IMG/VR virus record: IMGVR_UViG_2872185964_000001
Length of the DNA: 11,611 nt
Direction: 5' to 3' (one strand)
Source: a virus
Lineage: Duplodnaviria; Heunggongvirae; Uroviricota; Caudoviricetes
The stretch's first letter is position 1. Each line of letters starts with the position of its first letter. Below, piece by piece: positions 9,001-11,611 of the stretch. The position numbers are program-made.

Positions 9001-11611
9001 TTACAGCAACCATAACGGCTCCTAGTTTACGTTGTTGGTTAGACGCCCCGTATGTGTTCCCAGCACTGCGGGGCGTTGCTCTTTGTATTTCAACAATCCT
9101 TTCGGTGTGTTTCATGTTATGAGCGCATGAAACACACGTCAAGGCTTTTTGTATTTCTTTTTTTGTGTATACTGAAACACACCGATGATTAGGAGTTTCA
9201 GAAATGGCAACGGCTAACAAAAACGCAAAATCACAACTGACAACTGTCAGAGTCCCACTAGATGTTATGCAAGGGATGGAATCCGTTAAGCTGGACGGTG
9301 AAAGCAATGCCGGATTTATCGTAACCGCCATGCGCGGAGAAATGGCCCGCCGCCAAGCAGAAGGCAGCGGAGAAAATCCCCTTGTGTCGTCACTGGATGC
9401 CCTGGCTAAGGTCGAACAAATCGGCATCAAAGCAGCCGAGGAGATCGGGCAACTCGTCACCGTCGCGCGTGAAGAACTCCAGCGACGCAAGGTCAAAGAG
9501 CATGAATAGCCAATATCAGCGCCATAGTTTGAGGAACGCAGGCGCATTGCTTTACAGGACAGCACCATGAGCGACACAGAATCAACCAAAACACCATCAC
9601 CAACTCGTAAGAGACGACGCAAAAATATAGCGCATGAACATGAATCAGAAAGATTCGCACCTTGTTCGTTTGCTCTTGAGAAATTCCTTAAAGAGCACAG
9701 GAAAAAGCTCTCGTTGCAAACCTTGGAACGAACCAAATCTGACTGATCACATTGCCCACCAGCCGCAAATGTGGCATTGTTGGTGATGCTTTTGTTTTCC
9801 CTTGTTCCCACTGGCGACCCTTTTGCGGTCGCCTTTGTTTTGTCACTGAATGCGGTTACCAAAGTAAAACTCAGGCTGATATTCACGTATCAGCGTTTTT
9901 TCTTCTTCCTCCTGCTCACGCTTTTTGCGCTTACATGCCTGTAGCTCCCTCCCCTTCTCGCTGGCACTTATTTGATATTGCTCTTTACGGCGGGAAAAAT
10001 CCTGTAATGCACCCCACGGGATACCATAAGTCCCCGTTTTTCTGATACCTGGTATCACATTTCTGAATACCCAGTTACTGAAACGATGAGCAAATGTGCC
10101 AGGCGTCGTTGCTTTGCGGCTGCGGGCTATTAGTTTGTAGAAACCTGACTCAGAGATAATTCTCATATTCTGATTTCCTCCTGGGGTGTAAGTTAAATTT
10201 ACTCCCTTTTCATCATCATCAAGCATCTGCAACGCCGTACGCGAATTGGTTAGTTCCAGCGCAGCACAAACATCTTTTGCAACAAACCACGGATCGCCGT
10301 TCAGATACACCACACGAACGTTCACACTATCAAAGCGCAGAACGACGAGATCACGAATATCGCAGAATTTTTTCACTGGACGAGCGTACCCCTTGCCCGT
10401 CACGGCAATATTTTTATTCATCGCGTTTTTACCTTATAGACAAAAAACCCCTCGTGATGAGGGGCATTATTTACTGGTTATTGCTGTTTTGTTTTTCCAG
10501 GTTTCCATCCAGGATGCCACTCACCACGGATCCATGCCTGAACCTCTGAAAGTCGATACCCTGCAGCACGTTCACCGATCTTGATACGTCGCGGGAATTT
10601 ACCTGCCTGCTCCATTTTCCAGCGTGTTGAGTTTGCCAGCGTGGTAAGTGCTATGCACTCTTTTTCACGAATGAACCGATCAATGTCCTTCATTGTGCGC
10701 AAATCGTTTTCATCAACAAGAGAATAAATTGCCATATCACACCACCTCTTTATTAAGCTCGATAACGTTGTTGTTAAATCCTGCTATCGTATTAAGGTAA
10801 TTAACCCACATATTAAGCACCTCAAGTTTTTTCTTTATATGCCTGCTTTTATTGTAAACACCAGCAACCCCTTTCACTTTATGACCTAAAAGAAGTTCGG
10901 TAATGACTCCAACTTATTGATAGTGTTTTATGTTCAGATAATGCCCGATGACTTTGTCATGCAGCTCCACCGATTTTGAGAACGACAGCGACTTCCGTCC
11001 CAGCCGTGCCAGGTGCTGCCTCAGATTCAGGTTATGCCGCTCAATTCGCTGCGTATATCGCTTGCTGATTACGTGCAGCTTTCCCTTCAGGCGGGATTCA
11101 TACAGTGGCCAGCCATCCGTCATCCATATCACCACGTCAAAGGGTGACAGCAAGCTCATAAGACGCCCCAGCGTCGCCATAGTGCGTTCACCGAATACGT
11201 GCGCAACAACCGTCTTCCGGAGCCTGTCATACGCGTAAAACAGCCAGCGCTGGCGCGATTTAGCCCCGACGTATCCCCACTGTTCGTCCATTTCCGCGCA
11301 GACGATGACGTCACTGCCCGGCTGTATGCGCGAGGTTACCGACTGCGGCCTGAGTTTTTTAAGTGACGTAAAATCGTGTTGAGGCTAACGCCCATAATGC
11401 GTGCAGTTGCCCGGCATCCAACGCCATTCATGGCCATATCAATAATTTTCTGGTGCGTACCGGGTTGAGAAGCGGTGTAAGTGAACTGCAGTTGCCATGT
11501 TTTACGGCAGTGAGAGCAGAGATAGCGCTGATGTCCGGCAGTGCTTTTGCCGTTACGCACCACCCCGTCAGTAGCTGAACAGGAGGGACAGCTGATAGAA
11601 ACAGAAGCCAC

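Follow-up and report, generated by a model that had tools for sequence, protein, structure and literature searches.

The window analyzed here, an 11,611-nt stretch of the Caudoviricetes record IMGVR_UViG_2872185964_000001, contains between positions 9013 and 9203 a short control region in which one repeated sequence lies over two back-to-back promoters. This raises the question of what reads the repeats and what is controlled through them. Comparative sequence data and a structural model lead us to conclude that the interval is probably the control region of a phage-inducible chromosomal island (PICI), where a small ribbon-helix-helix (RHH) protein of the YlcI/YnfO family, encoded immediately to the right, would repress a replication operon and regulate its own synthesis.

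Direct reading of the sequence together with a repeat search reproduced the coordinates of the perfect 12-nt inverted repeat reported in a first-pass annotation of this DNA, GTGTGTTTCATG (9105-9116) and CATGAAACACAC (9126-9137), whose arms are separated by 9 nt. The 10-mer TGAAACACAC at 9128-9137 occurs again at 9173-9182, touching TATACT (9168-9173) as had also been described, and this third copy forms a longer perfect inverted repeat of 13 nt with the left arm (TCGGTGTGTTTCA, 9102-9114; TGAAACACACCGA, 9173-9185). Among 5000 dinucleotide shuffles of 9014-9203, none produced an inverted repeat with arms of 12 nt or more and no more than 20 nt between them, and 13 contained a 10-mer in three copies. 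No further exact copy of TGAAACACAC is present in the rest of the window or in the 18.8-kb locus with the intact island. The sites are real and non-random. A reading of the repeats as iterons of a replication origin was rejected because the intact island has no copy of the motif elsewhere; the location of PICI origins downstream of primase (PMC10111431) also counts against it.

The region was then compared over about 100 homologous loci from six genera, taken from other E. coli islands, 80 contigs of a viral collection and ten loci from Xenorhabdus, Photorhabdus, Serratia, Pantoea and Lelliottia. A search of genome contigs with the YlcI-like protein as single query returned no loci, while an alignment used as query did recover them. 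What is conserved is a 9-mer, GAAACACAC in the window, which occupies four positions at regular intervals; the palindrome's inner CATG is not conserved across loci. A scan allowing up to two mismatches locates the 9-mer at 9105 (minus strand), 9129 (plus), 9149 (minus, weak) and 9174 (plus), hereafter O1 to O4 (Table 1), so that the degenerate copy O3 adds a fourth site to those described before. The spacings are 24, 20 and 25 bp, about two helical turns each, with O1 and O2 bracketing the leftward -10 and O3 and O4 the rightward one, and the same scan finds these four positions filled in other island variants. In the prototype island EcCICFT073 and in other islands the equivalent sites are direct repeats; the palindrome is therefore incidental to the window variant, and the "palindromic operator" of the first-pass annotation gives way to a 9-bp functional unit.

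In nine loci from four genera (Escherichia, Xenorhabdus, Photorhabdus and Serratia) whose protein carries the strand KSQL(T/F)TVRVP, the segments TGTGTTTC, GAAACACA with GTCAAG, and TGTATAnTGAAACACAC are invariant, as is the Shine-Dalgarno (SD) sequence. O1 is unchanged in these loci although the adjacent O1-O2 spacer diverges, keeping only the TAnnnT pattern of the -10 and losing the inner CATG. O2 holds a constant position beside GTCAAG/TTCAAG in all island variants while its sequence is variant-specific; the position equivalent to O3 has near-perfect or perfect variant-specific copies in loci L063 (ATGTAAGAC), L013 and L014; and O4 stands directly 3' of GTATAnT in homologous loci. The conserved landmarks of the region are GTCAAG/TTCAAG (the minus-strand -35), a T-rich block, GTATA(C/A)T (the plus-strand -10) and the SD.

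The site differs among islands, and within one island all positions change in concert. Its sequence follows residues 12-15 of the adjacent YlcI-like protein over nine variants of this head: LTTV or LFTV goes with GAAACACAC, MTTV with GAAATACAC, MTTI with GATATACAC, QLNA with GAATCGCAC, SLTA with GTCTTACAC, ALKA with GGTGTGGCCCAC (in both L003 and EcCICFT073), IKNV, in two variants, with AATGCACAC or AATACACAC, and the YQMRLP head of the O157 island with ATGGTAATYACCAT. In an alignment of the family, variation clusters within residues 2-15, and R16 and P18 are the same throughout. All site variants share an invariant CAC end, which the invariant R16 would fit.

Two natural swaps, provided by recombinant islands, bear on the identity of the binder. 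Between L004 and L005, AlpA and the Icd-like protein are 97% and 93% identical, while the YlcI-like proteins share 64% and the sites are different; between L002 and L005, the YlcI-like proteins and the sites are identical, with AlpA at 30% and the Icd-like protein at 44%. The window and L005 have orf59 products of 83% identity but different sites. Because of these swaps, the site is not tied to AlpA, the Icd-like protein or orf59. This bears directly on the possibility that the sites are operators of a different protein, be it one of these three, BRO-N, a helper-phage protein or a host factor. AlpA is an experimentally established regulator of such islands (PMC6092414), the Icd-like protein matches PHROGs annotated "transcriptional repressor", and physical linkage alone could account for co-variation with the adjacent gene. 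We nevertheless regard another binder as improbable: besides the uncoupling just described, BRO-N is missing from several islands that retain the architecture, and the variation coincides exactly with the strand by which the RHH-like protein is predicted to read DNA. A host factor cannot account for island-specific site sequences, and a host-factor site was rejected on this ground.

Both promoters overlapped by the sites are predicted ones. A consensus scan recovered the minus-strand TTGACG/TAACAT promoter of the first-pass annotation, but the scan by itself is not significant (2 promoters found against 0.9 +/- 1.0 expected), and the support comes instead from conservation across genera. In P_icd, the leftward promoter, conservation across genera extends to the -35 and to a TAnnnT -10 spaced 17 nt from it; its counterpart in EcCICFT073 is predicted as TTGACG-18-TATAGT, and transcription from P_icd would start at about 9107. 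For the rightward promoter, P_ylcI, with a putative start at about 9180, the -10 reads TATACT, TATAAT, TATAGT or TATATT at a fixed distance to the ATG in nearly all loci examined, and just looser -10-like hexamers occupy this position in L013 and L014. The sites overlap these core elements, which are themselves conserved. The idea of a divergent control region with a single recognition sequence at both promoters is supported.

The same placement speaks to the sign of regulation. Some RHH proteins activate their own promoter, P22 Mnt among them, and the YlcI-like protein might bind here mainly as an activator or an architectural factor, firing P_ylcI or helping AlpA. P_ylcI has no good or recognizable -35 in its upstream sequence, and O3 lies where a class II activator would sit. 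O4, on the other hand, covers the junction of -10 and +1 of P_ylcI, and O1 and O2 flank the -10 of P_icd within the core promoter, all of which are typical positions for repression; activation as the main role appears unlikely.

A further alternative is that the repeats act as RNA. The 9105-9137 hairpin or the alternative 13-nt pairing of 9102-9114 with 9173-9185, which adjoins the ylcI-like SD, would then be an attenuator or translational switch, or the repeats would be targets of an immunity RNA like seqA, seqB and seqC of P4. On either strand the segment does fold much more stably than shuffled sequence (z -4.3 and -4.7), and related islands use P4/P1-type RNAs (isrK and C4 in L063 and L097; see also PMC10111431). 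Rfam, however, yields no C4, isrK or c4-a1b1 match in the whole window at E<=1 or in 8826-9260 at E<=10, and no other Rfam family in the control region even at E<=10; on these permissive scans, P4/P1-type RNA immunity was rejected for the window island. Moreover, the inner CATG and the loop of the stem are not conserved while the outer 9-mers are, the direct repeats of EcCICFT073, L003, L013, L014 and L061 cannot pair, and with the predicted starts neither mRNA would hold both arms. An RNA function for the repeats is thus highly improbable: with no RNA family match, and with direct repeats that cannot form a hairpin, they are better explained as protein sites. In L063 (2496-2681, minus strand) and L097 (2240-2425, minus strand), strong isrK and C4 matches lie in the first gene of the leftward operon, of the "ash family"; there the protein module and RNA immunity appear to co-exist, with the RNAs further along the same leftward transcript.

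The 101-aa product of the ylcI-like gene belongs to NCBIfam NF041551 (YlcI/YnfO), with 58.1 bits against a cut-off of 30 over residues 9-50. Its AlphaFold2 (AF2) model, of a monomer, has a predicted local distance difference test score (pLDDT) of 83 and shows an extended segment at 11-18, helices at 19-28 and 35-55 and a long helix at 59-100. The N-terminal domain, about residues 9-55, has the β-strand followed by two helices within some 45 residues of an RHH fold, and a C-terminal helix follows; the protein thus models as RHH-like. An hhalign comparison set residues 8-53 on Arc 5-43, with R16 and P18 on Arc R13 and P15 (E 0.0035, probability just 9%), and the corresponding alignment to Mnt was not significant. 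In this register, the variable residues 12 and 14 presumably correspond to the base-contacting Gln9 and Asn11 of Arc. The 101-aa form shares the N-terminal domain and a C-terminal RRKAKEQE tail with 59-aa homologs (L002-L005 and L100), and differs from them by an internal segment of about 42 residues (around 52-93). Residues 45-86 weakly resembled the helix-hairpin-helix of Hef (E 0.015) in a profile search of PDB sequences; this assignment was dropped, since the AF2 model gives one long helix there.

Mechanistically, the YlcI/YnfO-family protein would bind as an RHH dimer, its N-terminal strand (about residues 11-16) reading the sites. P_icd would drive the icd-like gene and, in intact islands, the DUF4222-primase replication operon, and P_ylcI the YlcI/YnfO-family gene plus orf59. 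Bound at the perfect O1 and O2, the protein would block RNA polymerase at P_icd, keeping the icd-primase operon off and the island silent; its occupation of the weaker O3/O4 pair, over the -10 and +1 of its own promoter, would limit its synthesis. Repression might be lifted by the anti-repressor-family protein BRO-N, in dependence on AlpA, or by a protein of the helper phage.

Several points weigh against this repressor/operator module. Gene and site are adjacent, and their co-inheritance as one recombination block would also give co-variation; the swaps, for their part, would leave room for an unlinked binding factor. The spacing of 20-25 bp exceeds that of the Arc, Mnt and MetJ operators, and the missing -35 of P_ylcI belongs here as well. 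On the side of the protein, Pfam at its default threshold (0.01) gave no match, PF07704 was matched weakly by 20 of 24 family members (best E 0.00098, below the cut-off), and neither a profile search of PDB sequences nor Foldseek returned an RHH protein, Foldseek finding nothing. Finally, the module must accommodate published findings on EcCICFT073, whose induction requires AlpA and can be brought about by AlpA over-expression alone (PMC6092414); AlpA or BRO-N could act upstream of the module. Overall, the product of 9204-9509, which had been proposed as the binder, stands as the best candidate, because changes in the sites track its N-terminal strand rather than other proteins of the island, and because of its RHH model. 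The accompanying notion of an autoregulated bistable switch holds for the layout of a repressor with autoregulation, while bistability is unsupported, no second, opposing regulator having been found.

Table 1. Features of the control region and of the neighboring island genes, with positions in the window.
Feature	Position	Strand	Description
O1	9105..9113	-	GTGTGTTTC, reverse complement of GAAACACAC; exact copy; directly downstream of the leftward -10, about -6 to +3
O2	9129..9137	+	GAAACACAC; within the spacer of the leftward promoter, 1-nt overlap with the -35 hexamer
O3 (weak)	9149..9157	-	TTGTATTTC, differs from the inverted motif at 2 positions; at roughly -31 to -23 in the rightward promoter; pairs with O4 over a 16-nt spacer
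O4	9174..9182	+	GAAACACAC; extended match TGAAACACACCGA, 9173-9185; begins one base past the -10, over the expected rightward transcript start
P_icd, predicted leftward promoter	9114..9142	-	-35 TTGACG (9142-9137), 17-nt spacer, -10 TAACAT (9119-9114)
P_ylcI, predicted rightward -10	9168..9173	+	TATACT; T-rich stretch upstream
ylcI-like gene, proposed repressor	9204..9509	+	101 aa, YlcI/YnfO family
icd-like gene	8822..9013	-	NCBIfam NF033153, 63.8 bits; leads the leftward replication operon
orf59	9567..9746	+	conserved 59-aa basic protein; second gene of the rightward operon
Intrinsic terminator of the rightward operon	9813..9843	+	GGCGACC...GGTCGCC, then TTTGTTTTGT; strong
BRO-N anti-repressor-family gene	9843-10421	-	Pfam Bro-N; PHROG anti-repressor, E 2e-84
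Intrinsic terminator between alpA and BRO-N	10465-10447	-	strong
AlpA gene	10478-10735	-	Pfam Phage_AlpA
Candidate SymR-like cis-antisense RNA	9007..9091	+	two predicted stem-loops and a U-rich tail to about 9091; putative ends
Stem-loop 1	9008-9040	+	anti-AUG (9011-9013) and anti-SD (9019-9023) of the icd-like gene
Stem-loop 2	9042-9077	+	conserved GC hairpin
Candidate antisense -10	8995-9000	+	TATGAT, in the first icd-like codons; putative promoter

The element to which this module belongs was recognized from an intact copy. The region is frequent in E. coli chromosomes (1104 matching records), and locus L001 carries an intact copy of the island with 99.9% identity. Its genes run int, AlpA-type helix-turn-helix, BRO-N and the YlcI/YnfO-family gene (plus strand), divergent from the icd-like gene (minus strand), which is followed by three small open reading frames (ORFs), DUF4222, primase, SSB, capsid, decoration, helix-turn-helix and small terminase. 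The PICI order of int, alpA, a Bro zone, primase and late or capsid genes is found both in L001 and in EcCICFT073, and the intact leftward operon (icd-like gene, small ORFs, DUF4222, primase) is present in both. Judged by gene content and order, the element is a Gram-negative PICI carrying capsid genes. The L001 island splits a lambdoid prophage's portal gene, fragments of which flank it (683-1456 and 12302-13183), an arrangement that matches the "helper-embedded PICI" layout (PMC10111431).

In the window only a 2.1-kb relic of the island survives, from 8826 to about 10899, which keeps the 3' end of int, alpA, BRO-N, the control module and the icd-like gene. On its left, an insertion sequence (IS) of the IS600 type (about 7562-8825; orfA 8463-8765, orfB 7609-8427) abuts the icd-like stop; as mapped at this junction, the last icd-like codons are altered and the replication operon has been cut away. 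On its right, an IS1 (10900-11611, InsA/InsB readable on the minus strand) replaces most of int. The module is thus intact in the window, while its target operon was deleted by IS600. This junction occurs in no complete E. coli genome of the collection. Neither the satellite-island context nor this IS-bounded state, without the operon to be controlled, had been part of the first-pass annotation.

Among the neighboring genes, the icd-like one has no Pfam match at default thresholds. The product of orf59, which is 83% identical to WP_157918692.1 of L005, falls in PHROG 21027 (function unknown) and has homologs in the O157 island and EcCICFT073; the gene is unannotated in L001 and annotated in L005 and EcCICFT073. 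Since a terminator stands right after alpA, BRO-N would lie beyond the reach of AlpA-driven transcription unless there is read-through or a separate promoter. Left of IS600 the window shows a late region of a lambdoid prophage of the Shiga-toxin (Stx) type, with three tRNA genes (anticodons CAU, UCG and UCU, read from alignments) and the small RNA STnc100 (139 bits) at 5459-5975, a combination typical of such regions.

Within the control region lies another element that the first-pass annotation lacked, namely a predicted plus-strand RNA of two hairpins opposite the SD and start codon of the icd-like gene. For its GC hairpin (9042-9077), the folding z score is -3.9 in the plus and -0.4 in the minus orientation. 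Over 13 loci, pairing reaches 95.9% on the plus strand against 82.8% on the minus strand, with covariation of 0.28 against 0.085; the minus strand is less paired because many of the pairs are G-U on the plus strand. The two-hairpin consensus has 6 compensatory pairs. Full-length matches to the Rfam family SymR (RF01809) at the homologous position and strand stay below the gathering score of 61 (38.7 bits in L006, 33.6 in L058 and 32.8 in L063), and the window copy itself gives no SymR match. This strand-specific covariation opposite the start of the target suggests a SymR-like cis-antisense RNA that would block icd-like translation, as a second lock on the operon. Within the icd-like coding sequence, a terminator-like hairpin on the minus strand (8958-8978, CACACAAACGGCCTTTGTGTG then GCGTTTTCTG) overlaps the putative -35 region of the antisense promoter.

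How general is such a module? In EcCICFT073, the YlcI/YnfO protein is C_RS30120, with the head KSQALKARVP; two perfect AGGTGTGGCCCAC sites stand 23 bp apart and abut GTCAAG, and an orf59 homolog is present. As this island carries the same module, the idea is directly testable with existing strains and reporters. At the same attachment site, an O157:H7 island hides an RHH-like ORF of 57 aa, unannotated, together with orf59 beneath a spurious minus-strand pseudogene call; its palindrome at the same promoter positions, ATGGTAATYACCAT, is a different one. Genes of this kind may have been overlooked because they are tiny, lie on the opposite strand and are often unannotated or masked by spurious pseudogene calls.

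PICI-type satellites occur widely among Enterobacterales and mobilize genes for virulence and defence. Induction of the Gram-positive ones is understood through the master repressor Stl/Rpr, while for Gram-negative PICIs only the activator AlpA is known; the comparative evidence offers a concrete, conserved candidate repressor. The existence of a Gram-negative PICI repressor was called unclear in 2018 (PMC6092414), and our literature search found no paper describing the YlcI-like protein or any repressor for these islands. As a wider and distinctly more tentative proposal, the YlcI/YnfO RHH protein could be the missing master repressor of Gram-negative and capsid-forming PICIs, EcCICFT073 included, with swappable heads and operators defining "immunity groups" among satellites, and with a double lock on the icd-primase operon, shared with the SymR-like RNA and opened by the AlpA-dependent BRO-N or a helper-phage protein. 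The mechanism as such, an RHH repressor with repeated operators, is conventional, and the interest lies in satellite biology and in direct testability. The uncharacterised YlcI/YnfO family would gain a probable function, and the head/operator variants a role as a natural specificity code for an RHH scaffold. For the window itself the biological consequence is small, since the module sits in an IS-bounded relic.

Among known systems, the antisense candidate recalls SymE/SymR, where the RNA overlaps symE (PMC1891008) much as the predicted two-hairpin RNA lies across the start codon and SD of icd-like, a gene of the toxic type. It differs in that its homologous loci score 33-39 bits against a gathering score of 61, and in having the Icd-like gene rather than SymE as its target. 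The c4-icd RNA of P1 and the CI RNA of P4 are different in being co-directional with their targets, and none such was found in the window island.

Stl and Rpr are larger helix-turn-helix proteins that are inactivated by helper-phage proteins; the predicted fold here is RHH-like, in a protein of 59-101 aa, and Gram-negative PICIs in addition need the activator AlpA. As in Staphylococcus aureus pathogenicity islands (SaPIs) and other Gram-positive PICIs, the regulator is divergent from the excision/replication operon, between the int and replication sides (PMC6092414), and the sites lie in the shared control region. The implied role, silencing of the island, is the same. The RHH protein may work like Stl/Rpr by analogy, though not as a homolog.

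The plasmid RHH repressors omega (pSM19035) and those of the CopG type, which bind short repeats in arrays, resemble the module in that a short repeat is the apparent unit site while number and orientation vary. The heptads of omega likewise vary in number and orientation between promoters; they are contiguous, in contrast to 9-bp units 20-25 bp apart, and belong with another sequence family. The immI region of P22, with Arc and Mnt, differs in several respects: here there is no significant sequence membership and a single RHH gene, the four separate 9-bp sites are about two turns apart rather than adjacent half-sites at about one turn, and the controlled target is a satellite replication operon instead of an antirepressor gene. 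In both, on the other hand, a small protein, RHH in P22 and RHH-like by prediction here, has operators over the core elements of back-to-back promoters (Pant and Pmnt in P22), and, as predicted for the module, the gene next to the operator is autoregulated and specificity resides in the N-terminal strand.

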